Below, piece by piece: positions 16,768 through 62,063 of a stretch of DNA of 64,000 bases. Position 1 is the stretch's first letter; every line of letters starts with the position of its first letter. The stretch is from an uncultured Acidobacteriota bacterium (GTDB lineage: Bacteria > Acidobacteriota > JAQAZP01), in the NCBI GenBank assembly GCA_963836075.1, contig CAWIIB010000009.1, positions 322,437 through 386,436 on the forward strand. Direction: 5' to 3'. The position numbers were made by a program, and so were the translations under genes. The notes beneath the pieces were generated by a model that saw only the letters and a program-made list of their open reading frames with translations, did not search any database and was not told the origin of the DNA.

Positions 16768-19722
16768 TCAGAGCGTGGCCATCTCCGAGTTGTCGAAGTT
16801 GCGGCGGTAGAACTCCATGTACTGCACCTTGCGCTCCAGGGCCCTGATCACCGTACGGCTGAAGTTGACCCCGGTGAACTTCTGCGCGCTGCCCAGCCCG
16901 CCGGGGCTGAAGACGTTGATCTCCATCAGCTTGTCACCGACGATGTCCAGGCCCACCAGGAACATCCCGTCCTGGACGATCTTCGGCCGCACGATCTCCA
17001 CGATGCGCAGCGCCTCATCGTCCACTTCGGCCGCGGCCAGCTTGCCGCCGGCGTGGATGTTCGAGCGCATGTCGCCCCCGGTGCGCACCCGGCGGAAAGC
17101 GGCATACTTGCCCTTTTCGCGCAGCGGCTGCCCGTTCATCAGGAAGAGCCGCATGTCCCCCTGCTCCGCCGCCGGCAGGTACTCCTGGGCGATGACGTAG
17201 CCGTCGCGGCTCACCGCGTCGATCATCTGGTTCAGGTTCGGCACGTCGTCCGGCCGGACGAGGAAGACGCTCTGCCCGCCCGAGCCCTGGAGCGGCTTGA
17301 GCACGATGGTCCCGCCCTGTTCCTTGGCAAAGGCCTTGATCTCCGAGCGGTCGCGGGTGATCAGGGTCTGCGGCCGCACCTCCTCGGGGAACATCTGGAA
17401 GTACATCTTGCTCTCGGCCTTGGACAGGCCGTTGGGGTCGTTGACCACGATCACCCCGTGGCGCATGGCCAGCCGGCCGAAGAGGATCCCGGCGCTGGCC
17501 GCCCAGGGGCGGGACATGGCGTCGGTGGAGGGATCGTTGCGCAGCATCAGCACGTCCAGGTCGTCCACGGTGATCCGCTTCTTCACCGCAGCCTTCCCTT
17601 GCAGGTCCTTGAGGTAGGTTTCGCTGTTCTTGTATTTCTTCTTCGGCACGCTGGTGGCCCGGGCGCGGATCTGCTCGTCCGGGTCGTAGGCCAGGTCGCC
17701 CACCCCGATGACCCACGACTCGTGCCCCATGTTGATCGCCGCCACCGCCAGCCGGCTGGTGGTGTACCCGCTCTGCTCGGTCATCACGTCGTTTACGACA
17801 AATCCGATTTTCATTATTTTCGTCCTTTCCACGAGGTCGGTTACCGAAAGCCCGCCAGCCAACCTGGCCAGGCGGGAGGCGGTATCCGGCCGGTTCATAA
17901 ACTCAGGCGTCAGCGGCGGCTCGTGCAGCACGCGCCGCAGGGTCAGTTCCTTGATGATCGGTATGTGCTCGGTGGCGATCTTGCCGATGAACAGCGGTCC
18001 CAGCTCGCCGCCGCCGGCCAGGTGGTCCAGCAGTTCCGCCAGGCCGCGGAGATAGATGGCGTCCTTGCTCAGCCCGCCGCCGCGGTGCACCCGCATCACC
18101 AGGGTGAAGGCGGCGCGCTGCTCGATCTTCTGCTCGTCGCGGATCGTGCGGAAGTTCTCGACAAAGCTCGCGCCATCCACCATCTGCTTCACCGCCAGCA
18201 CCCGGGCGGCCAGCAGGCGCAGCCGCGGCCGGCTCAACCCGCCCACCAGGTATTCGGCCAGCACGGCCAGGCCCTCCTGCAGCGCCTCGTACCCGGCCAG
18301 ACCGGCGCTGAGCAGCCGCAACGGCTGGGACCGGCCGTTGAACCAGGTCAGCGAGTGGGTGCCGATCTCGTGCTGCAGCAGCGCCTCGGCCCGCCGCACC
18401 GGGATACTGCTCCCCGCGCCCACCATCAGCGAACCGCGGGAAACCATCAGGCCGCTGCCCATGTCCCGGCGGATCTCCACCCCGGCCTTGAACCCGGACC
18501 ACTTCCCGCGGTAACGGGCGATCTCCTCCCGGGCCAGGCCGGCAAACGCTTCCGCCGCCAGCCGGCCGCCCCCGGCATCATCCCGCGCCCGCGGGGGGAA
18601 CCGCTGCAGGATCTCGTCGGCCATGGCGCCCAGTTCGTCGCTCACCCTGCCGTAGATCTGCAGCCCCCCGTAGAGGAAACGCGGGGTGCCGAGGTCGCAG
18701 AGCATGGTGATCTGCCGGTCCAGCTCGTCCTGCTTCTGGCGGAAGATGCGGGCCAGCGTCGGGTCCTCCACCCGCTCCAGCGCGATGGCGTAAAGCCGGC
18801 GCTTGAGCGCCGACGGGTCCACCGGCACCGGCCGGTAGCGGAAGAGCGGCGCCCGCTGGAACCGGCCGCGCCGGAACACGTTCCACGCCTGGGCGGCATT
18901 GACCGGAGTGGCCTGGATCAGCAGGTCGAACTGCTCGGCCACTTCGGCCAGCAGCCGGTCCACCTGCCAGACCGCCTTGACCACCGCGTTCCGGCCCAGC
19001 ACGTGGAAGTGCCGGGGACGGTGGGAGGTGCAGGCGCGGCTGAACTCGAAGAAGGTGCGCTGCAGCGCCCGGCTCAGCTGGCGCCGCAGGGCGCGGAGCA
19101 CCAGCGGGTACTCCAGTCCGCTCACCGGGTCGCGGTAGACCGGGTTGATCTCGAGGACCAACTGGCTGCAGTTCAGTTCCGCGGCGTCGGCCGCGGGGAT
19201 CAGCGGGGCGAGACGACCCGCTGAGACAGATCGCGAACGAATAACCTCCACCTGGGCCCGGCGTTTCTGCAGACGGACCAGACGCAGCGACTTTTCCAGG
19301 ACAGCCACCGGGCCGTCGATGCTTTCGTCGCGCGGGGCGCGGAGCCGAAAAGCCGGCACCGGCCCTTCATCGGGGCCGAGACCGAAGCGGTCAGCGGGTA
19401 CGGCCCGGACTTCCAGCACCAGAAAGGCGCCGAACAACGGGCCGACGGTCCGCACCACCTGCCCGGCCAGGGCGGCCAGCCCCGGCCGTTGGCGGGTCAG
19501 GGTTGAGCCGATGAGGTAGGAGGCCTCGGTGGTCACCAGCTTCTCCGTCCCCTGGTCCGCTCCCATTTTTGGCTGGCGGTAGAGGCAGAGAAAGGGCAAC
19601 TGGCGGTCGACGTGCAAGCGCCCGCCTTCGGGCAGGCTCCGGCGGACCTGCTTGTTGGCGGCCAGACGCAGGCCCACCTGGGTAACCAGCCGGTCGGTGA
19701 TGGTTGTCTGCCTGGGGACCAT
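16768..19722 (-). CDS. Fusion protein. N-terminal DUF1704/MATCAP-like zinc metallopeptidase (HExxH and QEGLA motifs). C-terminal GshB-type ATP-grasp ligase (glutathione-synthetase family).
   Basis: 984 aa. LLQHEIGTHSLTWFNG (HExxH); YEALQEGLAVLAEYLVGG (QEGLA). The C-terminal 350 aa from MKIGFVVNDVMTEQ... to ...GLDIVGDKLMEINVFSPGGLG is prokaryotic GshB-like. An internal RBS+ATG (GAAAGGACGAAAATAATG) sits at the domain junction, yet the frame is continuous. Confidence 0.7.
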   Translation of the reverse strand: MVPRQTTITDRLVTQVGLRLAANKQVRRSLPEGGRLHVDRQLPFLCLYRQPKMGADQGTEKLVTTEASYLIGSTLTRQRPGLAALAGQVVRTVGPLFGAFLVLEVRAVPADRFGLGPDEGPVPAFRLRAPRDESIDGPVAVLEKSLRLVRLQKRRAQVEVIRSRSVSAGRLAPLIPAADAAELNCSQLVLEINPVYRDPVSGLEYPLVLRALRRQLSRALQRTFFEFSRACTSHRPRHFHVLGRNAVVKAVWQVDRLLAEVAEQFDLLIQATPVNAAQAWNVFRRGRFQRAPLFRYRPVPVDPSALKRRLYAIALERVEDPTLARIFRQKQDELDRQITMLCDLGTPRFLYGGLQIYGRVSDELGAMADEILQRFPPRARDDAGGGRLAAEAFAGLAREEIARYRGKWSGFKAGVEIRRDMGSGLMVSRGSLMVGAGSSIPVRRAEALLQHEIGTHSLTWFNGRSQPLRLLSAGLAGYEALQEGLAVLAEYLVGGLSRPRLRLLAARVLAVKQMVDGASFVENFRTIRDEQKIEQRAAFTLVMRVHRGGGLSKDAIYLRGLAELLDHLAGGGELGPLFIGKIATEHIPIIKELTLRRVLHEPPLTPEFMNRPDTASRLARLAGGLSVTDLVERTKIMKIGFVVNDVMTEQSGYTTSRLAVAAINMGHESWVIGVGDLAYDPDEQIRARATSVPKKKYKNSETYLKDLQGKAAVKKRITVDDLDVLMLRNDPSTDAMSRPWAASAGILFGRLAMRHGVIVVNDPNGLSKAESKMYFQMFPEEVRPQTLITRDRSEIKAFAKEQGGTIVLKPLQGSGGQSVFLVRPDDVPNLNQMIDAVSRDGYVIAQEYLPAAEQGDMRLFLMNGQPLREKGKYAAFRRVRTGGDMRSNIHAGGKLAAAEVDDEALRIVEIVRPKIVQDGMFLVGLDIVGDKLMEINVFSPGGLGSAQKFTGVNFSRTVIRALERKVQYMEFYRRNFDNSEMATL

Positions 19723-19726
19723 GGAT

Positions 19727-20512
19727 CTACATCCGCTCCAGTTCTTCGATCACGCCGGGAACGGTGGAGCGCAGGGCGTCGCCCACCGCGGCCAGCAGGG
19801 CCGGGTCAGGCACGCCGGTCCACTCGTCCATGAAGAACTTCTTGAATTCGATGGCGATGGAGCAGCCGGTGCGGGGGAAGGTTTCGTGGACCCAGCCGGA
19901 GAACCTGGCGCCGCGGAACTTCACGTTCTCCCGCACGTCGAGCGGGCCGCCGGGGAAAGGGTAGGCCCGCAGATCGGCGATGAAGCGCTCCACCACCGGC
20001 GCCCAGAAGCGGCGGTCCATGCTGCCGGTTCCCAGGTTGACCTGGGGGTTTCCGGCCGGATCTTCCGGTTCGGCGCCGGGGCCGCCCCGGCGGTGGTTGT
20101 AGCTGTGCAGGTCGAAGACCATGAACCGGCCGTGCTGCCGCGCCATCTCCGAGAAGAGCTGTTCCATCGCCCGGTAAAACGCATCGTAACCGGCGAGGGA
20201 CCGCTGGGCCACGTCGGCCGGCAGCTCACCCTTCCAGACCTTGAGGCCCCAGGCGTCCTCGGGCGTGCGGTAGACCGCCTTGCCCCGGGGCCGGTTGAGG
20301 TCCACCTCGAAGCGCGAGTGGCGCCCGATGACCCGCGTGGGGCAGATGGCGGTCCACTGGCCGGTGAAGGGGTCTTCCTCCCGCAGGCGGTCCGCCTCGG
20401 GAAGGTTCATCACCTGCTCCACCTCGGGTCGCAGCTCGTGGCCGTCATGGACCGCCGCGGCGGCCACCGGCCCCTTGCCCTGTTCCAGTGTCCAGATCGT
20501 ACTCGTCATATC
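19727..20512 (-). CDS. N-formylglutamate amidohydrolase (FGase)-family protein.
   Basis: MTSTIWTLEQG...RPEVEQVMNLPEADRLREEDPFTG...VFDLHSYNHRR is FGase-like. Its stop lies 4 nt from the start of the MATCAP-GshB gene. Confidence 0.6.
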   Translation of the reverse strand, partial: DMTSTIWTLEQGKGPVAAAAVHDGHELRPEVEQVMNLPEADRLREEDPFTGQWTAICPTRVIGRHSRFEVDLNRPRGKAVYRTPEDAWGLKVWKGELPADVAQRSLAGYDAFYRAMEQLFSEMARQHGRFMVFDLHSYNHRRGGPGAEPEDPAGNPQVNLGTGSMDRRFWAPVVERFIADLRAYPFPGGPLDVRENVKFRGARFSGWVHETFPRTGCSIAIEFKKFFMDEWTGVPDPALLAAVGDALRSTVPGVIEELERM

Positions 20513-20719
20513 AACACCCTCAGCCGGCAGACGTCGTTGCTGCGACCACCGACAGTTCACCGGTGCAGCGGAACGTCACCGGTGGATTTGATTCCCTGGT
20601 TCAGATGTCTGCCGGGACAGCGAAAGGTAATCCGCGAAATGCACGGACTCTAATACTGTAACACGCCGGGAGAATGCAATAAAAAAGTAGCGTTTGATCG
20701 AGGGGCCGGGGCCCGGCTC

Positions 20720-24072: not shown

Positions 24073-24074
24073 CA

Positions 24075-24843: not shown

Positions 24844-24982
24844 GGTCACCACTGAACGGGCAGTCCGGCCCCTGCACCCTGCCTGCACCATGATATTGAA
24901 ATCGACACAATCGAAGCATCGCCCCGGTCACAGATCACTATAGACGTGATCTGCAGGGGATAACAAGGGACTGGAACTCCTG

Positions 24983-25666
24983 TCACATCCCCTTCCCCGC
25001 CACTCCCCTCACCCACTCGACCCAGCCGTCGAACCCTTCGCCGGTCTGGGCCGACAGTTCGGCCAGCGGGATCGCGCCGTTGATCTTTCGCAAGTTGGCC
25101 CGGGCGGCATCCAGATCGAACTTCAGGTGGGGCAACAGGTCTGTCTTGCTCAGCACCGCCAGGTCCGAGACCCGGAAGGCGAGGGGATACTTGAGCGGCT
25201 TCTCCTCCCCCTCGGTCACCGAAAGCACGGCCACCCGGGCGGTCTGCCCCAGGTCGAACTCGGCGGGGCAGACCAGGTTGCCCACGTTCTCGATGAAGAG
25301 GAGGTCGAGGTCTGAAAGTGAAATCCGGTCCAGCGCCTGCTTCAGCGTGCCGGCCTCGAGGTGGCAGGCGCCGCCGAACCCCTCGGTCTGGATCTGGACC
25401 GTGGGGACGCCGAACCGGGAGATGCGCTCGGCGTCACAGGAGGTGGCGATGTCGGCGGCGATCACGCCGACCCGCAAGGTCGCGCCCAGCCGTGAGATGG
25501 TCTCCTCGATCAGCGCCGTCTTTCCCGAACCGGGGCTGCCGATCACATCGATGACGCAGACCCCCGCCTCGGCGAAACGCCGGCGGTTCTCCTCAGCCAA
25601 CCGGTCGTTGGCCTGCAGAATGCTGGTCACCACGCTGTATTTTCCGGGGCCTGCCTCATCCCTCAT
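24983..25666 (-). CDS. hypB: [NiFe]-hydrogenase nickel-incorporation GTPase HypB.
   Basis: GSPGSGKTALIEETI (P-loop) ... ENVGNLVCPAEFDLG ... LSKTDLL. Confidence 0.85.
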   Translation of the reverse strand: MRDEAGPGKYSVVTSILQANDRLAEENRRRFAEAGVCVIDVIGSPGSGKTALIEETISRLGATLRVGVIAADIATSCDAERISRFGVPTVQIQTEGFGGACHLEAGTLKQALDRISLSDLDLLFIENVGNLVCPAEFDLGQTARVAVLSVTEGEEKPLKYPLAFRVSDLAVLSKTDLLPHLKFDLDAARANLRKINGAIPLAELSAQTGEGFDGWVEWVRGVAGKGM

Positions 25667-26011
25667 CTAGTCCACCTCCACGGCGAAAAGCTCCAGCTCC
25701 CGGCCGCTGACCAGCTCCAGGTCGGGCGACCCGCAGCCGGAGCAGAGAAAACAGGGTTCCTCGATTTCAACACTGATCCCGCAGGCCCTGCACGTGCCCC
25801 GGACCGGCACCATGGTGATCTCCAGGGAACTGCCGGCAAGCGGGGTATCTTCCGCCAGGACACCATAGAGAAACTTCAGGTTGTCCGGCACCACCGCGGT
25901 GAGCCGGCCCACGCGGACGGAGACGGTCTCCACCCGGCCGGCGATCTTCCCTCCGGCCAACTGCTGTTCAACCGCCTTGATGATGCTGAGCGCGATGGAG
26001 GCTTCGTGCAT
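25667..26011 (-). CDS. hypA: Hydrogenase nickel insertion protein HypA.
   Basis: MHEASIALSII...; zinc site CRACG...CSGCGS. Confidence 0.85.
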   Translation of the reverse strand: MHEASIALSIIKAVEQQLAGGKIAGRVETVSVRVGRLTAVVPDNLKFLYGVLAEDTPLAGSSLEITMVPVRGTCRACGISVEIEEPCFLCSGCGSPDLELVSGRELELFAVEVD

Positions 26012-27006
26012 CAGCAGATCCTCGGCAACTGGGCGCCCCTGAGGGGGATCAGGGGCCGCCGGCCGCCGATGGCGGTTTCCAGCACCACACCGGCCGGACC
26101 GCTGTCCACCTCGCCGATCAGGGCGGCGCCCTCGCCCCGCGGGTGACCCCGCAGGAGTCCGAGCCCTGCTTCAGCCTGGTCGGCCGGCACCACGGCGACC
26201 AGCCTTCCCTCGCAGGCCACGTAGAGCGGGTCGAGGCCCAGCAGGTCGCAGGCCGCCGACACCTCGCGCCGCAGCGGGATGGCGGTTTGCCGGACCCGCA
26301 TCCCCACACCGGACGCGTCGGCCAGGTCGATCAGCGCGGTGGCCAGGCCGCCCCGGGTGGGGTCGCGCATGCACCTCGCTCCCGGCACGGCGTCAAGCAG
26401 GGCGCCGGCCAGGTCGGCCAGCGGCTGGCAGTCGCTCTCCAGGCGGCCGGCGAGCCCGAACCCTTCACGGGCCGCCATCACCGCCACGCCATGGTCACCC
26501 ACCGGCCCGCTGACCAGCACCGCATCGCCGGGACGGCAGGCCGCAGCCGACAGGCTGCGGCCCGGGGGTACCAGGCCCAGGCCGCTGGTGTTGATGAAGA
26601 TCCCGTCCGCCTCCCCGCGGCCCACCACCTTGGTGTCCCCGCTGACCACGGCCACCCCGGCCTCCCGGGCGGTGCGCCCCATGGAGGCCACGATCCGTTC
26701 CAGGTCGCCGATGGAGAAACCTTCCTCGATGATGAACGCCGCGGTGAGCCAGCGCGGTTCGGCACCGGCCACGGCCAGATCGTTCACCGTCCCGGCCACG
26801 GCGAGCCGGCCGATGTCCCCCCCGGGGAAGAAAACCGGGCGCACCACGAAGGAATCGGTGGTCAGCGCCACCCGCTCGGCCCCCGTCACCGTGGCTGCGT
26901 CCTCCAGCACCGCCGGCGCCCCGAGATGTTCGAGGAAAAGGCCGCGCACCAGCTCAGCGGTGGCCGCCCCCCCCTCGCCATGATCCAGGAGGATGATCCC
27001 GCTCAT
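26011..27006 (-). CDS. hypE: Hydrogenase maturation protein HypE.
   Basis: 331 aa, AIR-synthase-like fold, HypE-typical C-terminus ...PRIC. Confidence 0.85.
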   Translation of the reverse strand: MSGIILLDHGEGGAATAELVRGLFLEHLGAPAVLEDAATVTGAERVALTTDSFVVRPVFFPGGDIGRLAVAGTVNDLAVAGAEPRWLTAAFIIEEGFSIGDLERIVASMGRTAREAGVAVVSGDTKVVGRGEADGIFINTSGLGLVPPGRSLSAAACRPGDAVLVSGPVGDHGVAVMAAREGFGLAGRLESDCQPLADLAGALLDAVPGARCMRDPTRGGLATALIDLADASGVGMRVRQTAIPLRREVSAACDLLGLDPLYVACEGRLVAVVPADQAEAGLGLLRGHPRGEGAALIGEVDSGPAGVVLETAIGGRRPLIPLRGAQLPRIC

Positions 27007-28094
27007 TGGACTCCTCGCCGCTCGTATCGATACCAGGCCGCACAGGCCCCCTCGCTGGAAACCATGCAGGGGCCCACCGGCCCCAGCGGGTCGCAGGTCT
27101 CTGCGAAGAGCGGGCAGTCGGGCGGGACGATCTTCCCCTTCAGCACGTCGCCGCAGGCGCAGCCCGGCGGCAGGTCCGCCGTCTCCTCCAGCTCCACCGG
27201 CAGGCGCGTCCCGGCGTCGAAGCCGGCATACTCCCCGTTCAGCTCGAGGCCCGAGCCGGGAATGGTCCCCAGGCCGCGCCAGGCGGCGTCGCAGCTCTGC
27301 AGCACCGCCGCCGTGACCTCGCGGGCCGCCGGGTTGCCTTCCGGCCGCACCGCCCGGCGGTACTGGATCTCCACCTCGGCCCGCTGCTCGGCCCGCTGGC
27401 GGAGCAGCATGGCGATCCCCTCGAGGATGTCCAGCCCCTCGAAACCGGTGACCACCGAGGGGATGCGGTATTCGGCGGCGATCGGCTCGTAGGGCCGGCT
27501 GCCGATGATGGCACTGACGTGGCCGGGGAGAATGAACCCGTCGATGGCCGTTTCCTCGTCTTCCAGCAGGGCTTCCATCGCCGGCGGAATCAGCTTGAAG
27601 GCCGGCATGACGAGGAAGTTCTCCACCCCCGATTTTTTGGCCTGCTGCAGGGTGGCCGCCACGGTGGGGCTGGTGGTCTCGAAACCGATGCCGAAGAAGA
27701 CCACCAGGCGCTCCGGCTCGGCCCGGGCCGCCCCCAGCGCCTCCATCGCCGAGTAGACCAGCCGCACGTCGCGACCGGCGGCGCGCTCCTGCTCCAGCGA
27801 GGAGGAGGAGCCGGGCACCCGCAGCATGTCGCCGAAGGTGGTCACGGTCACCCTGTCGAGGCGCCCCATGGCGATCACCTGGTCCACCGCGGAGCAGGGG
27901 GTGACACAGACCGGGCAGCCGGGACCGGAGAGCAGCCGGAGGTTTTCGGGCAGCCGGGCGCGGAGGCCCAGCCGGCAGATCGCCATGGTGTGGGTACCGC
28001 AGAGCTCCATCAGGTTGACCGGCCCCCGGGCCAGCGACCCGATCTCACCGAACAGCTCTTCGGCCCGGCCGCGCAGGGCCGCTTGACCGCTCAT
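27003..28094 (-). CDS. hypD: Hydrogenase maturation protein HypD.
   Basis: ATG at 28094 overlaps hypC by 4 nt. CGTH, GPGCPVCV, ...CPLF... HypD motifs. The ORF-track extension up to 28352 is out-of-frame overlap with hypC. Confidence 0.85.
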   Translation of the reverse strand: MSGQAALRGRAEELFGEIGSLARGPVNLMELCGTHTMAICRLGLRARLPENLRLLSGPGCPVCVTPCSAVDQVIAMGRLDRVTVTTFGDMLRVPGSSSSLEQERAAGRDVRLVYSAMEALGAARAEPERLVVFFGIGFETTSPTVAATLQQAKKSGVENFLVMPAFKLIPPAMEALLEDEETAIDGFILPGHVSAIIGSRPYEPIAAEYRIPSVVTGFEGLDILEGIAMLLRQRAEQRAEVEIQYRRAVRPEGNPAAREVTAAVLQSCDAAWRGLGTIPGSGLELNGEYAGFDAGTRLPVELEETADLPPGCACGDVLKGKIVPPDCPLFAETCDPLGPVGPCMVSSEGACAAWYRYERRGVQ

Positions 28095-28336
28095 CCCTCC
28101 GCCCCTTTGCCAGAGCCATCCGCCGTTCCGAACGCCTCGCCGAGCAGGGCCAGCGTCTCCTCCGCCTCCTCCCGGTCGAGGACCTGGATCGCGAACCCGG
28201 CATGGGTCAGAACGTACTGGCCCACTTCCACTGCGGAGAGGAGCTGGATGTGGACCGTGCGCTCGGTGCCGCCGAAGTCGACCCTGGCGGTCTCCCCCTC
28301 GATCCGGATCACCTTCCCTGGTACTGCGAGACACAT
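28091..28336 (-). CDS. hypC: Hydrogenase assembly chaperone HypC.
   Basis: N-terminal MCLAVPGKVI (the MC(L/I)(A/G)(I/V)P signature), 81 aa. Confidence 0.85.
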   Translation of the reverse strand: MCLAVPGKVIRIEGETARVDFGGTERTVHIQLLSAVEVGQYVLTHAGFAIQVLDREEAEETLALLGEAFGTADGSGKGAEG

Positions 28337-28348
28337 TTGCCGCTCCGT

Positions 28349-30700: not shown

Positions 30701-30707
30701 GACAGAA

Positions 30708-30720
30708 CTGCCGTCGGCAG
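30708..30720. promoter_or_regulatory. Perfect palindrome CTGCCG-T-CGGCAG in the hypF/hoxE divergent intergenic region. Candidate operator or 5'-UTR hairpin.
   Basis: Seen directly. It lies 8-29 nt upstream of the alternative hypF starts. Confidence 0.3.
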
Positions 30721-30952
30721 ATTTTATTACGGATTGACAAGGACGGGTAGAACGATCGTCAACAGAATCCTAATCCGCCCGAAAAGCGGCTGTTCGACCT
30801 CACTCCTATTGAACCCCGTAACTATTCGGTGGATAATACCTTGAAGCCAACAACCGAAATTGAATCGACTCTTCTTGACCATGAAACGGGAAGCCACTAT
30901 TGCTTGCGGGATTCGTGACAACAATCCCGGAAGTCCATAGTAGGAAGCACCG

Positions 30953-31450
30953 ATGATCATCGACTACGCCAAGCCCGCGCCGCCCTCCGACGACAAACGG
31001 TGGAAGATGGTCCAGGCCGAGATGCGCAAGTACGGCCACTCGCACGACGCGCTGATCCAGGCGCTGCACGCCGTGCAGAGCGCCTTCGGCTACCTCGACC
31101 CGGGCGCCCTGGGCTTCGTCGCCGCCTCGCTGCGCGTCCCGTTGAGCCGGGTCTACGGCGTGGCCACCTTCTACCACTACTTCACCATGAAGCCGCGGGG
31201 GCGGCACACCTGCGTGATCTGCACCGGCACGGCCTGCTACATCAAGGGCGTGCCCGAGCTGCTGGCGGCACTGAAAGAGACCTACGACATCGGCCTCGGC
31301 GAGACCAGCGAGGACGACAACCTCTCCCTGCTCTCCGCCCGCTGCGTCGGCGCCTGCGGCCTCGCGCCGGTGGCGGTGATCGACGGCGAGGCGGTGGGCA
31401 AGCTGACCCCGGAGCACTTGCTGCTCACGCTGGAGGAGGTGATCGGATGA
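30953..31450 (+). CDS. hoxE: NAD-reducing hydrogenase diaphorase subunit HoxE (NuoE-like 2Fe-2S thioredoxin-like).
   Basis: VCTGTACYIKG...CVGACGLAPV (NuoE-type cysteine pattern). Confidence 0.8.
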   Translation: MIIDYAKPAPPSDDKRWKMVQAEMRKYGHSHDALIQALHAVQSAFGYLDPGALGFVAASLRVPLSRVYGVATFYHYFTMKPRGRHTCVICTGTACYIKGVPELLAALKETYDIGLGETSEDDNLSLLSARCVGACGLAPVAVIDGEAVGKLTPEHLLLTLEEVIG

Positions 31451-33078: not shown

Positions 33079-33800
33079 GCCCGCAGACCGTCCGCATCAA
33101 GACGCTGACCATCGACGGCCGCCAGGTGGGCGCGGCGCACAACGAGACGATCCTCCAGGTGGCCCAGGAAAACGGCATCTGGATCCCGACCCTCTGCTAC
33201 CTCGAGGGCCTGACCCCGGCGGGCGCCTGCCGGCTCTGCCTCGTCGAGGTGGCCGGCCAGCGGCGGCCGATCCCCGCCTGCACCACCGAGGTCTACGAGG
33301 GGATGGAGGTCACCACCCAGTCGGAGAAACTGAAGCACTACCGCAAGGTGATCATGGAGCTGATCTTCTCCGAGCGGCACCACGTCTGCGCCGTCTGCGT
33401 CTCCAACCACCACTGCGAGCTGCAGGAGCTGGCTCACCGCCTCGGCGTGGACCACATCCGCTTCCCGCACCTCAACAAGGCCTGGAAGGTTGACGCCTCC
33501 CACGACCGCTACGTTCAGGACGACAACCGCTGCGTCCTCTGCGGCCGCTGCGTCCGCGTCTGCGGCGAGATCGAGGGCGCCCACACCATGGGCTTCGACG
33601 GCCGCGGGATCAACACCTGCATCATCACCGACCTGCGCCAGCCCTGGGGCGAATCCCAGACCTGCACCCGCTGCGGCAAGTGTGTGCACGTCTGTCCCAC
33701 CGGGGCGCTGATCGAGCAGGGCAGGAGCGTGGCGGAGCAGACCAAGCGCTCGCAGTTCATGCCCTACCTGACGATGATGCGCGAGGAGGACAAGAAATGA
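33075..33800 (+). CDS. hoxU: Diaphorase subunit HoxU (NuoG N-terminal-like 2Fe-2S/4Fe-4S ferredoxin).
   Basis: IPTLCYLEGLTPAGACRLCLVEV..., CVLCGRCVRVCGEIEG, CTRCGKCVHVCPTGAL. Confidence 0.8.
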   Translation: MSPQTVRIKTLTIDGRQVGAAHNETILQVAQENGIWIPTLCYLEGLTPAGACRLCLVEVAGQRRPIPACTTEVYEGMEVTTQSEKLKHYRKVIMELIFSERHHVCAVCVSNHHCELQELAHRLGVDHIRFPHLNKAWKVDASHDRYVQDDNRCVLCGRCVRVCGEIEGAHTMGFDGRGINTCIITDLRQPWGESQTCTRCGKCVHVCPTGALIEQGRSVAEQTKRSQFMPYLTMMREEDKK

Positions 33801-34330: not shown

Positions 34331-34340
34331 GGCTGCGATC

Positions 34341-35765: not shown

Positions 35766-35779
35766 GGCGGGCGTGGCCT

Positions 35780-36251: not shown

Positions 36252-36256
36252 CCGGC

Positions 36257-37192: not shown

Positions 37193-37376
37193 TGAACGAG
37201 ACCTCGGTTCACTATAGACAACTTGATGCCCGAAAGACAAGGACCGCCGTCGACGGCAAACGCTGGAGACCGAATGCCGGGCGGATCAAATGGCGGCTAC
37301 CGGCAATGGGAGAGCCGTCTTGTGGGAGGCAGAAAACCAGAGGCAGTGTCACATCGTGATGAGGAAAGGAATCCGT

Positions 37377-43108: not shown

Positions 43109-43110
43109 TT

Positions 43111-51224: not shown

Positions 51225-51261
51225 ATCACCGACCGAACCAGGATCATTGGAGGATTGACGG

Positions 51262-53351: not shown

Positions 53352-53359
53352 AGGTGGCG

Positions 53360-54679: not shown

Positions 54680-54714
54680 CGATCCTTTTGAGGTGCTTCC
54701 GGTCGGGCGGCCGG

Positions 54715-55598: not shown

Positions 55599-56444
55599 CT
55601 CTTCCTCCTGGTCGGAGAAAATGATGACCGAATCGATCAGCCTGGCGTTGGGCACGCTCCAGGATCCGCCCTCGCCGGTAAACGTCGTCTCCACCGGGCC
55701 AACCTGTTTCACCCGGCCGCGCCGTCCTTCCACCTCGACCCCGGCGCCCACGATGAGACTGCGCCGGAGATAGTGGCCGGCCAGCAAGCCCCGCACGATA
55801 TCCCGCGAGCCGAAGGCGAAGGCCCACCCCATCCCGATGCTGGCCGAGACCACGATCGCCGTGAAGACCATAATGAGGATCTGCGTGTCGATACCCAGCT
55901 GTTCGAGAGCCACGACGCCCACCATGATAACAATCATAATCTTGGCGGTCGTGCCCAACTGTTTGGCAAAGACCAGGTTGGCCGTGGCCGCGCCGGAAGC
56001 GACGAGATTACCGGCGAACTGGGCCAGCAGGACGCCGATGACGATCACCAGCACCGCACCGATCACGCTGGGCAGGAACTGGATCAGACGGTCGATGGTC
56101 ACGGTCACCGCGGATAGACCGAGGATCTCGGCCGCGGAAAGGAGAAAGGTCAGCATCAGGGTCCAGAAGAGGAGGCGCCCGATGATCGCCGAGGGAGTTT
56201 TATCGATGCCGGCGGTGTGGAGCATTTCCCTGATCCCGATCCGCTCCGAAACACGGTCAAATCCGAAACGGTCGAGCAGGCCCCGCGCCGCCGACTCCAC
56301 CAGCCTGGAAACGCCCCAGCCGGCGACGAGGACGAACACGGTCCCGAAAACACTGGGCAGGAAGGCGGCAACGGTGCTGCCGAGTTCGGAGAGCCAGGAG
56401 ATCAGGATTGTCTGCCAGGCGCTGAAGTTCAGCAGTTCATTCAT
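55590..56444 (-). CDS. MscS-like small channel with conserved-TM-helix (PF05552-type) repeats and a degenerate beta-domain.
   Basis: Repeated ...LPSVIGAVLVIVIGVLLA.. helices. C-terminal ...GAGVEVEGRRGRVKQVGPVETTF...SVPNARLIDSVI. Confidence 0.55.
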   Translation of the reverse strand: MNELLNFSAWQTILISWLSELGSTVAAFLPSVFGTVFVLVAGWGVSRLVESAARGLLDRFGFDRVSERIGIREMLHTAGIDKTPSAIIGRLLFWTLMLTFLLSAAEILGLSAVTVTIDRLIQFLPSVIGAVLVIVIGVLLAQFAGNLVASGAATANLVFAKQLGTTAKIMIVIMVGVVALEQLGIDTQILIMVFTAIVVSASIGMGWAFAFGSRDIVRGLLAGHYLRRSLIVGAGVEVEGRRGRVKQVGPVETTFTGEGGSWSVPNARLIDSVIIFSDQEEEPC

Positions 56445-56676
56445 GGTTCTCCTCCTCGATTACAAAAACACCACTGTAGAACAGGCCAAGGAGCGGTACG
56501 CAGCAACCCAGGACGAAAACCGATGAAAAGAATTCGAGAAGATCCCTCCCGGTGACCTCTGCATGGACACGTGCCATCGTCTGCCTGTAGAGGTCGGGAC
56601 GGGGAGCGGGTATGTGGTCATCGAGCCTGGAGAAAAATCTTCCGGCCTCTTCCTCGAGAACTGCTTTCTCGTCCAT
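56437..56676 (-). CDS. Putative anti-sigma factor (small, C-terminal single TM).
   Basis: 80 aa, starts 16 nt after the ECF sigma stop. C-terminal hydrophobic segment FFSSVFVLGCCVPLLGLFYSGVFV. Confidence 0.45.
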   Translation of the reverse strand: MDEKAVLEEEAGRFFSRLDDHIPAPRPDLYRQTMARVHAEVTGRDLLEFFSSVFVLGCCVPLLGLFYSGVFVIEEENHE

Positions 56677-56692
56677 TTCGTCTCCACTCCTT

Positions 56693-57289
56693 TCAGTCCG
56701 CTGGTTCCTCATCATCGAGCGCCGGGGCCGCTGTGCCGGGCCCGCCGGCGGCATGTTGCCGCAGCTGCTCGACGGCCCGCACCACCCGCATTTTCACTGC
56801 CGACTCCTTCATCCCCAGAACGTCGGCTATTTCGGCGTATCCCCACCCTTCGGAAAAACGCATCACCACCGCCACCCGTGTCTCGGGTGCAAGAACGTCC
56901 ATCATCTTTTCCAGCGTCAAGCGATCCTCGTTGTTCGACTCCCGGTTGCCGGCCCAACGGCCGCCCTGGTCCTCGAATGCGCCCCGGCGGCGCTGCTCCT
57001 GGTGACGGCGCCGCAGAACAAGCCGGCAGGCATTGATCACGATCGTATTCAGCCAATGCTCAAACGGCTTCTCGAAACGGAAGCGGGGAAGTGAGCGAAA
57101 GACGCTGAGGAAGCTGTCCTGGACCACGTCCTCGGCGTCCTCCCTGGTGCGCAGGATCCGGTAGGCCCGGCGGTAGACCCGGGCCTGGTGCCGCGTAACC
57201 AGGGCGTCGAAGGCAGCGGTGGCGTAGGGCAACTCCTTCTGCGCCCGTTCGACGAGTGCCCGATCAGCATCTGTGGTGTGATCGCTCAC
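56693..57289 (-). CDS. ECF-type RNA polymerase sigma factor (sigma-70 regions 2 and 4).
   Basis: ...AFDALVTRHQARVYRRAYRILRTREDAEDVVQDSFLSVFRSL... (region 2). ...RVAVVMRFSEGWGYAEIADVLGMKESAVKMRVVRA (region 4 HTH). Confidence 0.75.
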   Translation of the reverse strand: MSDHTTDADRALVERAQKELPYATAAFDALVTRHQARVYRRAYRILRTREDAEDVVQDSFLSVFRSLPRFRFEKPFEHWLNTIVINACRLVLRRRHQEQRRRGAFEDQGGRWAGNRESNNEDRLTLEKMMDVLAPETRVAVVMRFSEGWGYAEIADVLGMKESAVKMRVVRAVEQLRQHAAGGPGTAAPALDDEEPAD

Positions 57290-57432
57290 GTCTCTCCGCG
57301 GGTTTCCCTCCGCCGAGCGGCCGTTAAAGTTGTCATCCACTACAGTAAAAGCAGGCCAGGGCGGAAAACGTCACATAACACCGGACTTCGCGTCGCGGCC
57401 TTGAACCGAAGCACGCCGCCATTGGACAACCT

Positions 57433-57514
57433 GAAAACAAATTCCACTCCCGGGGTTACTTTCTTGTCCGGTCCGTCATTAGTCAGGTGAGGGAAGCATG
57501 CCGGATAGCGGCTG
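57433..57514 (+). promoter_or_regulatory. Copy A of the approximately 80-nt conserved element, in the divergent region between the ECF sigma operon and the OMP gene.
   Basis: TGAAAACAAATTCC..CGGGGTTACTTTCTTGTCC..TCCGTCATTAGTCAGG.TGAGGGAAG..AGCGGCTG. More than 75% identical to 49516-49599 over about 80 nt. Confidence 0.4.
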
Positions 57515-57671
57515 CGCACCCGTGGATTAAAACATGCAGACAAAAGCACAGTCAAACGTGGGATCCGCCTGTGAAGAGGTGATCACCGGTGATCCCAGTC
57601 AAGGAGCGTTCTGCTCCGACCGGTAGTGGTGAACTGCACGCAATGCGACCTGGAGTCGCAAAAAAGGAGAA

Positions 57672-59285
57672 TTGCTGATGAAGAGCAACACGAATCGGAC
57701 CAAGCGGTATCTCAATTTAGCGACCACCCTGGTCCTACTGCTCCTGTTCCCGGGTATGACCCCGGTGCTGCAGGCAGGGGAGGACTCGGATTTCTACAAA
57801 TGGACCGCACCCTCGGTGGAGGATCAGCTGGCCGCCGACCAGACCCCCGTCCCGACAGATGCGGGCGCGATTTTCGTCCCGGCGATGACCGACGGGAACG
57901 ATGAGCCCCTGGTTCTCGTGTTCCAGAACGAGCAGAAAGTGGCTTCGGGCAAGACCGGGGCGAGGATTATCGTCAGCCCCGGCGCCTGCGACATCCGTGT
58001 GGGCTCAGGTGCGGTTAAGCAGATGATGACCTATGGGGTCGAAGTGGCCGCAGGCGAAACAACCGTCGTGGACTGCACCTGGGGCGGCCTGAAGGTCAGT
58101 GTCGTTGACGAGAACAACATCCCCCATCGGGGTACATACGAGGTCATCCGCGCGGAGGGCCGGGAGCTCTTCGGCATCGGCTACGGCGCCGACACCCTGC
58201 AGGCCGAGCCGCTGGGCACCTGGCTGCTCGGTCCCGGCCTCTACCGCATCGTCCGCACCGGTGAGACCTACCGGGCCAGAGAGGATTTCGCCACCGTGGT
58301 TCTCCCCGAGGGCGGGCTGGTCCACTTCAAACTGGTCATCAACCCCGACACCGGCGAATTTCGTGGCGCCGGCGTGGCCCTGCCTGACGAACTGGGAATC
58401 GTGGATGAGGCGGTGAGCAACTGGGCCAAATCGATGACCCTCGGCGTGGCGGCGTCCCTCAGCGACTCGTCCGATGTGGTCGGATCTCCGAACCAGTCCA
58501 GCTACTCGGGAGTCGGATACTTCGACACCTATCTGACCTACAAGAACGGACCCCATTTCGGATCCGCCATCCTGGAACTGGAGGAGGGTTTCCTGAGGGT
58601 CGACCCGGAAACCAGCGAGTCCCTGCCGACGCAGAAAACCCAGGACCGGTTGCGTGCCGACCTCCTCTACACCTGGTTTGTCAAGGAGTGGGTCGGCCCC
58701 TATGCTCGCGCCGGGTTACTGACCAACATCTTTCCCTCGGAAACCCTGACCACCGAGGACCAGTTCATCGCTTACAACCGGCTTGACGGTACCAGAGACG
58801 TTATCTTCGTTCCGGCGAACAACAACTACCGGACGTCGGACAGCTTCGGCAACCTGCGGTTCCGCGAGGGTGTGGGCGCCAACTTCCGCCTCTTCAGAAA
58901 CCAGCACGTCACCCTGAACTGGCGGCTCGGCGTCGGACTGAGACAAAACGTGTTCAACGGCCTGTATGTCAACGAGGACGATGCGGCAACCGAAGAGATC
59001 GACCTCTACCAGGTGGACAGCTTCAACCAGGAGGGTCTCGAGACCACCATCACCGGGAACGTGCGGATCACCCGGTATCTCTCGTATATCACCGACCTGG
59101 AAGTGTTCGCCGATTTCTCCGACATGGGCGAGCCGACCGTTGACTGGCGTAACAATCTCAGCCTGCGCCTGACGCGGTATCTGTCGCTGGACTACGTGCT
59201 CGACATTCTCAGGTTCCCGCAGGTTGTGGACCAGACCCAGACGAGCCAGAGCCTGCTGCTGCGGTTCTCGTTCGACATTATCTAA
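57672..59285 (+). CDS. Secreted beta-rich protein, probably an outer-membrane beta-barrel, unknown function.
   Basis: Signal peptide ...TLVLLLLFPGMTPVLQAG. Alternating hydrophobic patterns. C-terminal ...LLLRFSFDII. Confidence 0.5.
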   Translation: MLMKSNTNRTKRYLNLATTLVLLLLFPGMTPVLQAGEDSDFYKWTAPSVEDQLAADQTPVPTDAGAIFVPAMTDGNDEPLVLVFQNEQKVASGKTGARIIVSPGACDIRVGSGAVKQMMTYGVEVAAGETTVVDCTWGGLKVSVVDENNIPHRGTYEVIRAEGRELFGIGYGADTLQAEPLGTWLLGPGLYRIVRTGETYRAREDFATVVLPEGGLVHFKLVINPDTGEFRGAGVALPDELGIVDEAVSNWAKSMTLGVAASLSDSSDVVGSPNQSSYSGVGYFDTYLTYKNGPHFGSAILELEEGFLRVDPETSESLPTQKTQDRLRADLLYTWFVKEWVGPYARAGLLTNIFPSETLTTEDQFIAYNRLDGTRDVIFVPANNNYRTSDSFGNLRFREGVGANFRLFRNQHVTLNWRLGVGLRQNVFNGLYVNEDDAATEEIDLYQVDSFNQEGLETTITGNVRITRYLSYITDLEVFADFSDMGEPTVDWRNNLSLRLTRYLSLDYVLDILRFPQVVDQTQTSQSLLLRFSFDII

Positions 59286-59400
59286 GCCGATGGCTGATGA
59301 CTGCCGGTCGGCGGAGCGGCAACGCTTCCCGTCCGGCGGCTCGGTCGGCCGGTTGTGACCGGGTGCAGCCGGGATGATTACTGATAAGGGGGAAAAAATC

Positions 59401-60879
59401 ATGAATGAAATTATCAATCTGCTGAAAGAATCGGTTGGCGGATACCTTCCGCAACTGCTCGGCGCCGTGGCCATTCTGGTCGTCGGCTGGCTGATGGCCC
59501 TGGTCATTGCCGGGGCGATCCGTGGGTTAGTAAGGCGCACCGGGATAGACGACAAACTGGTCACCTGGTTTGGCGAGGAAAAATCGGGCGGCAAGGCGCC
59601 GGATTTCGCCGTCGGCATCGGCCGGGGCGTGTTCTGGTTGATCATGATCCTGGTATTGACTGCCGTCCTGCAGGTCCTCGACCTGACCCTGACCACGGCC
59701 CCGCTGAACAATTTCCTGTCCCAGGTTTTCCAGTTCCTGCCCCAGCTCGTGGGGGCGGCCGTGCTGGCCCTCATCGCCTGGATCACCGCGGTCACCCTGC
59801 GGCTGCTGCTGAGCAAGGCGCTGAAGGCGGCAAAGGTGGATGAAAAAATCTGGCGCCAGCTGAGCGACGGGGAACCGTCCGGGCAGGTGTCGCGGACCAT
59901 CGCCGATGCCGCGTACTGGCTGGTGCTGCTGCTCTTCCTGCCGGCCGTGCTGGGTGCCCTGAAGTTGCAGGGCCTTCTCCAGCCGGTGCAGGGCATGATG
60001 AACAGGATTCTCGGCTTTCTGCCGAACCTGCTCGCCGCCGCCCTGATCGCCCTGGTCGGCTGGTTCGTGGCCCGCCTGGTCCGGCGGATTGTGGAAAACC
60101 TGGCGGGAACGGCCGGCGGGGATCGGCTCGGTCAACAGATCGGACTGCCGCAGCTGTCCCGGATCATCGGCCTGGTGGTCTACATCCTGATCCTCGTTCC
60201 GGTGCTCATCGCCGCACTCAACGCCCTGGCGCTGGAGGCGGTCACCCGGCCGGCCAGCCTGATGCTGACCAAGATCCTCGCCGCCTTCCCGTCCATCTTT
60301 GCCGCCGCGGTGGTCGTCCTGATCGCCTACGCGGTGGGGCGGCTGGTTTCCGGACTGGTCACCGAACTGCTCACCGGCATCGGGTTCAATACCATCCTGG
60401 TCCGGCTGGGCATCGGCCGGGAACCGGAGGAGGGTCGGCGTACGCCGTCCGAGATCGTCGGCTACCTGGCACTGGTGGCGATCATGCTCTTTGGCGCTCT
60501 CGAAGCCTCCGGTCTGCTGGGCTTCGAAGTCCTCTCGGACCTGACGACCGATGCCACCGTGTTCGGCGGGCACATTCTCGTGGGGCTGGTTATTTTCGGG
60601 ATCGGTCTCTACCTGGCCAACCTGGCCGCTGAGGCCATCCAGTCCAGCGGTGTGGCGCAGTCCCGTCTTCTCTCCGTCACCGCCCGTATGGCCATCCTGG
60701 TCCTGGCCGGCGCCATGTCGCTGCGGCACATGGGCCTGGCCGACGAGATTGTCAGTCTGGCCTTTGCCCTGATCGTCGGCGCCGTGGCGGTGGCCGCAGC
60801 TGTGGCCTTCGGCATCGGCGGCCGGGACCTTGCCGCGAAGAAGCTGGCCCAGTGGTTCAAGGAAAAACCATCGGTTTGA
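59401..60879 (+). CDS. Membrane protein with four conserved-TM-helix (MscS-associated PF05552-like) repeats, no beta-domain.
   Basis: Four repeats of ...LP.L.GA...L..GW..A....R (e.g. LPQLLGAVAILVVGWLMALVIAGAIRGLV; LPQLVGAAVLALIAWITAVTLRLLL; LPNLLAAALIALVGWFVARLVRRIV). Confidence 0.5.
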   Translation: MNEIINLLKESVGGYLPQLLGAVAILVVGWLMALVIAGAIRGLVRRTGIDDKLVTWFGEEKSGGKAPDFAVGIGRGVFWLIMILVLTAVLQVLDLTLTTAPLNNFLSQVFQFLPQLVGAAVLALIAWITAVTLRLLLSKALKAAKVDEKIWRQLSDGEPSGQVSRTIADAAYWLVLLLFLPAVLGALKLQGLLQPVQGMMNRILGFLPNLLAAALIALVGWFVARLVRRIVENLAGTAGGDRLGQQIGLPQLSRIIGLVVYILILVPVLIAALNALALEAVTRPASLMLTKILAAFPSIFAAAVVVLIAYAVGRLVSGLVTELLTGIGFNTILVRLGIGREPEEGRRTPSEIVGYLALVAIMLFGALEASGLLGFEVLSDLTTDATVFGGHILVGLVIFGIGLYLANLAAEAIQSSGVAQSRLLSVTARMAILVLAGAMSLRHMGLADEIVSLAFALIVGAVAVAAAVAFGIGGRDLAAKKLAQWFKEKPSV

Positions 60880-61017
60880 ACCGGTAGCGACGGGCGGGAT
60901 CCTCAGGAATGCCGAGGCTCCCGCCCCGAAGCGCCAATCACCACAGAGCCCGGGTTCAACCGATTAACCCGCGGTGCAGTATCGCCGCATAGATGGAGTA
61001 TCGAAAGGTAGCAAAAA

Positions 61018-62063
61018 TGAAAATCGGATTCGTCGTCAACGACATTATGACCGAACAAAGCGGGTACACCACCAGCCGGCTGGCAGTGGCCGCGATCAAC
61101 ATGGGCCACGAATCGTGGGTCATCGGGGTGGGCGACCTGGCCTACGACCCGGACGAGAACATCCGCGCCCGGGCCACCGGCGTGCCGAAGAAAAAGTACC
61201 AGAACAGCGTGGCCTACCTCAAGGACCTGCAGGGGAAAAACGCGGTGAAAGAGCGGATCACCGTCGACGACCTCGACGTGCTGATGCTGCGCAACGATCC
61301 CTCAAACGATGCGGTGAACCGGCCCTGGGCCACCTCCGCCGGGATCCTCTTCGGCCGGCTGGCCATGCGCCACGGGGTGATCGTGGTCAACGACCCCAAC
61401 GGCCTGTCCAAGGCCGAGAGCAAGATGTATTTCCAGATGTTCCCCGAGGAGGTGCGGCCGCAGACCCTGATCACCCGCGACCGCTCGGAGATCAAGGCTT
61501 TCGCCAAAGACCAGGGCGGGACCATCGTGCTCAAGCCGCTGCAGGGCTCGGGCGGGCAGAGCGTCTTCCTCATCCGGCCGGACGACGTGCCGAACATGAA
61601 CCAGATGATCGACGCGGTGAGCCGCGACGGCTACGTCATCGCCCAGGCCTACCTGCCGGCGGCGGAACAGGGTGACATGCGGCTCTTCCTGATGAACGGC
61701 CAGCCGCTGCGCGAGAAGGGAAAATACGCCGCCTTCCGCCGGGTGCGCACCGGGGGCGACATGCGCTCGAACATCCACGCCGGTGGCAAGCTGGCCGCGG
61801 CGGTGGTGGACGAAGAAGCGCTGCGCATCGTCGAGATCGTGCGGCCGAAGATCGTCCAGGACGGGATGTTCCTGGTGGGCCTGGACATCGTCGGTGACAA
61901 GCTGATGGAGATCAACGTCTTCAGCCCCGGCGGGCTGGGCAGCGCGCAGAAGTTCACCGGGGTCAACTTCAGCCGTACGGTGATCAGGGCCCTGGAGCGC
62001 AAGGTGCAGTACATGGAGTTCTACCGCCGCAACTTCGACAACGCGGAAATGGCCACTTTGTAA
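61018..62063 (+). CDS. Stand-alone GshB-type ATP-grasp ligase (glutathione-synthetase family). Paralog of the C-terminal domain of the 16768-19722 fusion.
   Basis: About 94% aa identity to the fusion's ATP-grasp domain. RBS GAAAGG upstream of the ATG. GshB C-terminal motifs ...MRLFLMNGQPL...GGDMRSNIHAGG...GLDIVGDKLMEINVFSPGG. Confidence 0.75.

Follow-up and report, generated by a model that had tools for sequence, protein, structure and literature searches.

The 64,000-nt stretch of DNA analysed here (the window; all coordinates below are counted along its full length), from an uncultured Acidobacteriota bacterium, carries two copies, A and B, of a gene for a GshB-like ATP-grasp ligase, which lie far apart and in opposite orientations. 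Comparison of the two with each other and with their relatives makes it highly probable that they have been homogenised by repeated gene conversion since an old duplication. The case is built from the significance of an identical tract inside the two genes, the age of the duplication, an uneven synonymous divergence along the alignment and a discordance between haplotypes and loci, and it lends support to the original prediction, made from the letters of this DNA, of recent conversion between the paralogues. The overall ratio of nonsynonymous to synonymous divergence between the copies (omega) is ~0.16 by the Nei-Gojobori method, which argues that both are under purifying selection, and given this ratio they are best taken as two real, functional ligase paralogues.

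Mosaic identity along two inverted ligase genes

Comparison of the window with itself reveals only one long repeat, an inverted pair at 16775-17818 and 61013-62056 (1044 nt, 93% complementary) with 43,194 nt between its arms; the next-longest repeats are 40-50 nt long and 62-84% identical. The inverted duplication of ~1.04 kb, 43 kb apart, that had been proposed is thus confirmed. Its arms coincide with two open reading frames (ORFs) of one family, whose coding sequences (CDSs; A, 17814->16768; B, 61017->62063) are 1047 nt each and, compared codon by codon, differ by zero indels, 71 nt mismatches (93.2% identity) and 19 amino acids (aa; 94.5% identity, where about 94% had been given). Homology runs from ~17 nt 5' of the ATG to the stop codon: the repeat is the CDS, and the genome of the window has exactly two copies of the ligase, with homology confined to the gene. 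The ribosome-binding context is shared too, as had been pointed out; GAAAGG and an A-rich spacer precede both start codons, but those of copy A lie within the coding part of the gene before it. In this genome copy A does not stand as a gene of its own: it forms part of a 984-aa ORF (16768-19722), discussed below. The two copies and the parts of the alignment that matter most are as follows.

16768..17814, minus strand: copy A, coding for a GshB-like ATP-grasp ligase that makes up the C-terminal 348 aa of the 984-aa ORF (NF009110, 491 bits, residues 637-984; Pfam GSH-S_N, GSH-S_ATP and RimK)
61017..62063, plus strand: copy B, a stand-alone 348-aa GshB-like ligase gene (NF009110, 488 bits; the identical protein is recorded as P0241, from a contig of 3,516,849 nt)
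17494..17814, minus strand: diverged 5' third of copy A (CDS nt 1-321), the "alpha" haplotype; its counterpart in B, 61017-61337, is the "beta" haplotype
17333..17494, minus strand: second near-identical tract (CDS nt 321-482, 1 mismatch); counterpart in B, 61337-61498
16789..16998, minus strand: 210-nt identical tract (CDS nt 817-1026); counterpart in B, 61833..62042, plus strand
16768..16788, minus strand: last 21 nt of CDS A, with 6 mismatches to B, a locus-specific 3' end

Cut into segments, with synonymous divergence (dS) between A and B estimated per segment by Nei-Gojobori, the alignment reads:

CDS nt 1-321: 40 mismatches, 87.5% identity, dS 0.39
CDS nt 322-483: 2 mismatches, 98.8% identity, dS 0.05
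CDS nt 484-816: 23 mismatches, 93.1% identity, dS 0.24
CDS nt 817-1026: 0 mismatches, 100% identity over 210 nt, dS 0
CDS nt 1027-1047: 6 mismatches, 71% identity

Identity is therefore uneven, from 71 to 100%, and a uniform pattern of divergence is not seen. The 5' third, where many synonymous and nonsynonymous differences had been pointed out, accounts for more than half of the mismatches (40 of 71) and of the aa differences (12 of 19); its divergence is mostly synonymous (omega 0.19), and its longest perfect A/B run is 45 nt. The identical block of ~160 nt that the original prediction placed at the 3' end does exist, but it is longer (210 nt) and internal, not terminal: beyond it, the last 21 nt differ again, with S343A and the stop codon (TGA vs TAA) among the differences. 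Over the last 145 aa we count four differing positions (E211A, E263V, D266E and S343A), and not the three given before.

Could such a tract arise by chance? If the 71 mismatches are placed uniformly at random, an identical run of 210 nt is expected with P ~1e-5. A permutation limited to the 196 sites that vary among five full-length homologues, which removes invariant sites under selection, finds A and B in agreement at 30 of these variable sites in a row (nt 825-1011; P=3.5e-5). In the same test, none of the other pairs of homologues comes near this concordant run. The mosaic structure of the A/B identity and its significance are thus observed directly in the alignment.

Age, source and haplotypes of the duplicate

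The closest genome to that of the window is a short-read Acidobacteriota metagenome-assembled genome (MAG), MAG_302_bin-08, called the related MAG below. Its contig L060 carries the A locus, is syntenic with the window from 24871 to 17392 and stops inside the ligase at CDS nt 423 (copy A2, 423 nt); its contig L041 carries the B locus, is syntenic with 56693-60926 plus copy B and stops at CDS nt 759 (copy B2, 759 nt). The B locus is also found on L075, a metagenome contig of ~2 kb with the same gene order (msc501'-ligase-msc275') as the window, and A-type loci are carried by L062, L063, L065-L074, L076 and L077. In comparisons, A1 and B1 denote the copies A and B of the window, and A3 and A4 orthologues of A1. 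The genes that flank the two copies in the window are:

14412..16730, minus strand: CitMHS/TrkA-C transporter gene 3' of copy A, the exterior flank of the A locus, kept in relatives
59374..60879, plus strand: msc501, a mechanosensitive-channel gene 5' of copy B, the interior flank of the B locus
62343..63170, plus strand: msc275, a mechanosensitive-channel-like gene 3' of copy B, the exterior flank of the B locus

The B locus (msc - ligase - msc) has the same flanks in L041 and L075, as the A locus has in L060, L062, L063, L065-L074, L076 and L077. Read from gene order, this places the duplication before the split of the window organism from at least two related populations. A scan of metagenomes with the upstream msc protein, or with an exact 29-nt anchor at the start of the downstream msc gene, returned no further B loci, and a search with the msc501 protein gave matches above 62% identity in the window itself and one related MAG only. 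In the flanking genes, 24-27% of fourfold degenerate sites differ between the window and L041 or L075, and 21-28% between the window and related populations overall (up to 46% for L063). Paralogues that predate a species split should, if they do not exchange sequence, diverge at least as much as the orthologous flanks. A and B differ at 11.8% of fourfold sites overall and at 0% in the 210-nt tract, half the divergence of the flanks although the duplication is older than the split, which argues that the copies have exchanged sequence.

Several short-read contigs of the relatives begin or end inside the ligase gene: besides L041 and L060, which stop at nt 759 and nt 423, L076 starts at nt 743. 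The 3' parts of both ligase copies are absent from the bin of the related MAG. Near-identical paralogues break de Bruijn assemblies, and contigs of this MAG that stop inside the gene are what near-identical repeats at this place would be expected to produce.

Where did copy B come from? This ligase is nearly always the third gene of an FGase-MATCAP-ligase cluster (61 loci in species-representative genomes, many phyla), the arrangement found around copy A, and the sequence in front of copy B retains a trace of it.

19727..20560, minus strand: FGase-family (N-formylglutamate amidohydrolase-like) gene, the first of the conserved three-gene cluster
17815..19722, minus strand: metallopeptidase part (636 aa) of the fused ORF, of the MATCAP/DUF1704/QEGLA type, in which the motifs HEIGTH and QEGLA occur (PF08014, 294.5 bits, E=1.4e-87)
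61000..61016, plus strand: relic 5' of copy B, ATCGAAAGGTAGCAAAA, in which ATC GAA AGG TAG (61000-61011) reads I E R stop

In cluster loci the MATCAP gene ends in ...L(I/V)ERK..*, with a stop codon that usually overlaps the ATG of the ligase (ATGA). The relic resembles this 3' end and doubles as a ribosome-binding site; the corresponding sequence before the ligase ATG in L075 is ATCGAAAGGAAACTG. The remnant of a MATCAP 3' end marks copy B as a dispersed duplicate of the operon gene, and its origin from an FGase-MATCAP-ligase operon is thus read from the sequence itself. The duplicated piece would have extended from the last few MATCAP codons, at the left breakpoint, through the stop codon of the ligase, and would have landed, inverted, between two mechanosensitive-channel genes, while copy A stayed at the ancestral place. 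Around copy B, a consensus scan for promoters and terminators finds one weak promoter-like site 3' of the gene and no terminator, and folding of the intergenic sequence yields only a GC-rich hairpin after msc501. This hairpin, GGGCGGGAUCC...GGCUCCCGCCC at 60892-60926, lies directly 3' of the msc501 stop codon, has no U-tail and is shared by the window with L041 and L075. Its role may be that of a terminator-like or REP-like (repetitive extragenic palindromic) element that divides msc501 from copy B.

In the cluster loci, the ligase often has one or two more paralogues behind it in tandem, at far greater divergence. Two or three ligases in tandem, 54-74% identical to the query and with no homogenisation seen, occur in Phycisphaerae, other Planctomycetota and Scalindua/Brocadiaceae (L001, L003, L004 at 8943-12182, L011, L051-L053 and L058). 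Their presence suggests sequential or different ligation steps.

Within the A and B genes of the relatives, the phylogenetic signal shifts along the sequence, and, as judged from the aligned sites, 5' haplotypes do not track loci across species. At nt 15, 184, 194, 196, 235 and 297, B1, B2 and A2 have one state, and A1, the B copy of L075, A3 and A4 the other; A2 still has A-type states at nt 96, 177, 301, 315 and 316. At nt 165, 282, 391 and 399, the states are species-specific and common to both paralogues of each genome, and the last two of these sites fall in the second near-identical tract. The 3' ends follow the locus (CTCTGA in A1, L062 and L076; TTGTAA in B1 and L075); the ligase of L063 ends in ...CCCTTTAA. 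Pairwise nt differences amount to 44 between A1 and L075, 71 between A1 and B1, 71 between B1 and L075, 90 between A1 and A3, and 109 between A1 and A4. The simplest reading is that ancestral A-type and B-type sequences were overwritten patch by patch, from B to A in the related MAG and from A to B in the L075 population; conversion would then apparently have gone in both directions among sister lineages, with the direction of individual events deduced from these patterns.

Codon 211 (window 61647-61649) specifies Ala in copy B and its L041 orthologue; Glu stands at this position in copy A, in three sequences from relatives and in all 32 distant homologues compared. It belongs to the motif AQEYLP, which we take to lie in the nucleotide-binding hinge of ATP-grasp enzymes. 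Conversion has left E211A in place, and the substitution may set the B lineage apart in function.

Gene conversion and competing explanations

In the explanation that we favour, the copies would exchange sequence by repeated, non-reciprocal homologous recombination, in both directions and independently in several lineages. By analogy with known pairs, the most likely mechanism is RecA-type gene conversion during break or gap repair, with the other copy as the template. The most recent event in the genome of the window would have homogenised at least 210 nt (CDS nt 817-1026), and an earlier or separate one may have covered nt 322-483. A conversion tract needs homology to either side of it, so that the ends of the homology would be converted least, and the 5' third, with no perfect run beyond 45 nt, may by now be too mismatched for efficient recombination. 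This edge effect and mismatch barrier, we infer, would together preserve old differences linked to the loci in the 5' third and in the last 21 nt.

Concerted evolution of tufA and tufB was reportedly described by Abdulkarim and Hughes in 1996 and by Hughes in 2000. In Salmonella enterica and E. coli, these 1185-nt, inverse-oriented genes evolve in concert by homologous recombination (Paulsson et al. 2017, PMC5485169; Brandis et al. 2019, PMC6735719); the conversion tracts are bounded by the gene, and the frequency of conversion at position n is ~n(N-n), lowest at the ends (PMC5485169). Like A and B, they are two inverse-oriented paralogues of ~1.1 kb whose homology ends at the gene bounds; their tracts are hundreds of nt long and their ends are converted least, just as the ends of A and B are the most diverged; and both pairs of repeats could in principle invert the DNA between them. 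Unlike the tuf genes, A and B are 43 kb (rather than 762 kb) apart, differ at 71 positions (6.8%, vs 12, or 1%) and do not represent a highly expressed translation gene, and one copy lies in an operon, fused upstream; the evidence on A and B is comparative only, and no inversion is seen.

Could inversion, rather than conversion, have shuffled the sequences? Crossovers that invert the 43-kb segment, perhaps back and forth, would exchange segments reciprocally. Inverted repeats of 1 kb can support such events, and for tuf genes a passage of PMC6735719 that cites Hughes (2000) links conversion and inversion. A single crossover, however, does not make two copies identical, and both junctions of the window are arranged as in its relatives, the comparison of synteny that had been recommended: ligase-CitMHS, the A junction, is found unchanged in L062, L063 and L076, and msc501-ligase-msc275, the B junction, in L075. 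The recombinant junctions, MATCAP-ligase-msc275 or msc501-ligase-CitMHS, occur on none of the relatives' contigs, and there is no discontinuity in GC or AT skew (GC skew is ~-0.02 on the left of copy A as well as within the segment, a weak test). The idea that these repeats may invert the intervening segment was mechanistically reasonable, but neither the junctions of the relatives nor the GC skew bears a sign of it, and reciprocal exchange through inversion is an improbable source of the mosaic. A late duplication of A into B, in which the identical tract is a remnant and relaxed or positive selection let the 5' third change quickly, would account for 93% identity, for a clustering of differences in the N-terminal substrate-binding domain and for a change in B (E211A) at a position otherwise so conserved. 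It is nonetheless very improbable: in L041 and L075 the B locus has the same neighbours, and these flanks depart from those of the window at ~25% of fourfold sites; changes in the 5' third are for the most part synonymous (dS 0.39, omega 0.19); and Q62, V65, A66 and E79, all of them beta residues, are present at the A locus in the related MAG as well. A subfunctionalised N-terminal domain, considered as the cause of the diverged 5' third, is weakened by the same occurrence of beta residues and by the predominance of synonymous changes. Hardly credible is the proposal that an element embedded in the gene (an RNA structure, an overlapping ORF or codon usage) keeps the tract identical. The gene does have a GC content at third codon positions (GC3) of 0.91, and the protein is 80-84% identical across phyla, but 30 sites inside the tract vary among relatives, and the orthologues depart from it at 5-20 sites (L075 at 5, L063 at 14, L076 at ~19 and L062 at 20), so the tract is not under constraint at the nucleotide level.

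Gene conversion within the genome, the reading preferred here, has to be weighed against the quality of the data. All comparison sequences are metagenome contigs or MAGs, so that "species" are operational labels; the closest relative is known from partial copies (A2, 423 nt; B2, 759 nt) that fall short of the 3' tract; and a chimeric contig, such as the 2-kb L075, could mimic the discordance between haplotypes and loci. The window itself is a single assembly in which consensus building or polishing might have homogenised an exact 210-nt tract. Short-read polishing can homogenise paralogues, and reads placed on the wrong copy could have made either the 210-nt identity or the inserted T of the fusion described below in loci that are otherwise real. 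Such an artefact has a small chance of being the answer: the window lies on a 3.5-Mb contig with unique flanks for each copy, independent assemblies of relatives show similar patchy sharing, the break of the related short-read MAG inside the gene implies real long identical stretches, and the fusion junction differs by a T that interrupts an A run and not by the length of a homopolymer. For the two loci themselves an artefact is unlikely. A further point against conversion within one genome as the whole explanation is that A1 and the B copy of L075 differ at only 44 sites (0.109 of fourfold sites), where the flanks of L075 differ from those of the window at 0.24-0.26. A1 is closer to this copy from another locus than to its own orthologues A3 and A4, and closer than the flanks predict, a proximity that intragenomic conversion alone does not explain; some exchange between populations, by import of DNA from related strains or species and allelic replacement at A or B, may therefore contribute. 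As the source of part of the mosaic, such import is a minority possibility that we take seriously. It explains neither why A1 equals B1 over 210 nt in one genome nor the likeness of A2 to B2 in the related MAG; exchange between populations is a possible contributor to the mosaic alongside conversion, not a substitute for it. The divergence of the L075 flanks was estimated from only 116 fourfold sites.

The segment between the copies contains a hypBAE..F / hoxFU..H block, a histidine kinase and a receiver-transporter fusion, together with CNNM, TerC, SLC12, glycogen phosphorylase, BON/DUF1207, an ECF sigma factor and further msc genes. The 11.4-kb hyp/hox block (24871-36254) encodes hypB, hypA, hypE, hypF and a bidirectional-type NiFe hydrogenase (HoxF-like, HoxU-like and large subunit); it is missing at exactly this site in two related populations (L060, L062, L072), in which the CdaA-side and MscS-side genes are 85-126 nt apart. 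A single ORF at 39676-41703 combines a response-regulator receiver with a Na_sulph_symp/CitMHS transporter, an unusual fusion; it adjoins a dCache histidine kinase (37377-39086), and the region is missing at the corresponding place in L060.

A ligase-peptidase cluster, its fusion and its setting

Which reaction might the ligase catalyse? Both copies belong to the PRK12458 "glutathione synthetase" subfamily (NF009110; A 491.4 and B 487.7 bits against a cut-off of 408, profile positions 1-349 of 349) and contain the Pfam domains GSH-S_N, GSH-S_ATP and RimK. Neither reaches the cut-offs of the GshB equivalogs NF003573 (A 214.7 and B 212.2 vs 272) and TIGR01380 (A 201.5 and B 199.5 vs 299.05). The nearest solved structures are those of E. 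coli GshB (E=4.2e-37, residues 78-331), followed by RimK. The ligase shares with E. coli GshB (PDB 1GSA/1GSH/2GLT), its closest structure by sequence, the GSH-S_N and GSH-S_ATP domains, but differs in its subfamily, in its scores below the equivalog cut-offs and in its place in an FGase-MATCAP-ligase cluster. Its substrates are probably not gamma-Glu-Cys plus Gly.

The MATCAP partner matches PF08014 over residues 283-620 of the 984-aa ORF (294.5 bits, with a gathering threshold of 27) and scores 335.3 bits with TIGR02421, the "QEGLA motif protein" family, just below the cut-off of 338.65; phmmer finds no match to it among PDB sequences. Eukaryotic MATCAP members are tubulin-tail carboxypeptidases/deglutamylases that oppose ATP-grasp ligases (PMC10499314). 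The window system resembles the pairing of MATCAP/TMCP1-TMCP2 with TTL/TTLL (PMC10499314) in its PF08014 domain, its HExxxH motif and its genetic coupling to an ATP-grasp amino acid ligase, a pairing of ligase with carboxypeptidase like that in the cycles of tubulin tyrosination and glutamylation. Unlike the eukaryotic system, it is bacterial and has no tubulin, its ligase is GshB/RimK-like and not TTL-like, and its MATCAP protein has a 250-aa N-terminal extension and an FGase partner. A literature search for the bacterial FGase-MATCAP-ligase cluster (DUF1704, TIGR02421, and MATCAP with bacteria or ATP-grasp) found no study.

In the genome of the window, the second and third genes of this cluster are fused.

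17815..17820, minus strand: fusion junction, AAAATA followed by ATG, one nt longer than in relatives (T at 17816 within an A run)

The junction reads ACGAAAATAATG (longer stretch, GTGGAAAGGACGAAAATAATG). The junctions of relatives, in which the genes are separate, read ACAAAAAAATGA in L062 (longer, ...GTGGAAAGGACAAAAAAATGA), ACGCGCAAATGA in L063 and AAAAAGAAATGA in L077, with a stop codon that overlaps the ATG in all three, and AAATAAAAATG in L060. Insertion of the T at 17816 makes the MATCAP frame run into the ligase frame, to give the 984-aa ORF, whose product is recorded as P0245 from the 3.5-Mb contig. None of the 120 best protein matches is fused (595-692 aa, 60-65% coverage), and the stop codon of the MATCAP frame is present at all 25 junctions of relatives examined: among these, the fusion occurs in the genome of the window only. 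A homopolymer sequencing error is a less likely cause, since the extra letter is a T among As. With its internal GAAAGG-N9-ATG intact, copy A might still yield free ligase. Copy B, judged by its own reading frame, would be an unfused ligase whatever the state of copy A, and it is older than the fusion, because B exists where A is unfused. From the sequence, the fusion may be functional, neutral or an error, each of them a candidate.

E. coli Gss, the glutathionylspermidine synthetase/amidase, combines in one polypeptide an ATP-dependent ligase and a hydrolase that undoes the ligation. The 984-aa ORF would likewise join a ligase and a hydrolase in one chain; the hydrolase of Gss, however, is a CHAP amidase unrelated to MATCAP, and the window fusion is found in one genome and arose through a 1-nt insertion. 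It is possible, if rather doubtful, that the 984-aa ORF is expressed as a fusion of an "eraser", the MATCAP-type carboxypeptidase, and a "writer", the GshB/RimK-type ligase, of a C-terminal amino acid on a peptide or protein, tied to osmotic or ionic homeostasis, with copy B, held near-identical by conversion, as the supplier of unfused ligase. If so, the free copy B would make the fusion tolerable, and the duplicate would gain a function.

The neighbourhood invites this thought. From 14412 to 63170 the window is dense in osmotic and ion genes, including CitMHS/TrkA-C, CdaA (by synteny with L062), CNNM/CBS, TerC, an SLC12-type cotransporter and BON/DUF1207, along with at least four MscS-type/msc genes (36257-37240, ~55650-56450, 59374-60879 and 62343-63170). 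Several unrelated phyla likewise have genes of the msc type next to their ligase cluster (L005, L016, L018, L021 and L059). In Photobacterium damselae, GshB (RS17020) is up 38-fold and the adjacent QEGLA-motif gene (RS17025) 27-fold at 1% vs 3% NaCl (PMC10308900, Table 2); RimK is up 52-fold in the same comparison, and the authors treat RS17020 as an ordinary glutathione synthetase (PMC10308900). Induction of the pair at low salt in Photobacterium fits the osmotic and ion-homeostasis neighbourhood of the window.

What, then, does the pair of ligase genes mean? The process, concerted evolution of inverted paralogues by gene conversion, is well known; tuf genes, rRNA operons and pilin loci have already established gene conversion in bacteria, and the instance described here, in a ligase family in which it had not been noted before, adds little in principle. 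It is a clean natural example outside the usual model genes, in which a single alignment of a pair 7% diverged and 43 kb apart displays ends that keep old differences between the loci, a 5' third rich in mismatches and interior tracts of recent date. Short-read assemblies break at such pairs, which can also mislead analyses of orthology and dating. As stated, the finding is of modest interest. The more interesting by-product is the identity of the converted gene, the ligase of a very widespread and unstudied FGase-MATCAP-ATP-grasp cluster: the natural fusion of ligase and peptidase and the salt-related neighbourhood are handles on the function of the cluster, and it is the fusion and this uncharacterised system that deserve follow-up.

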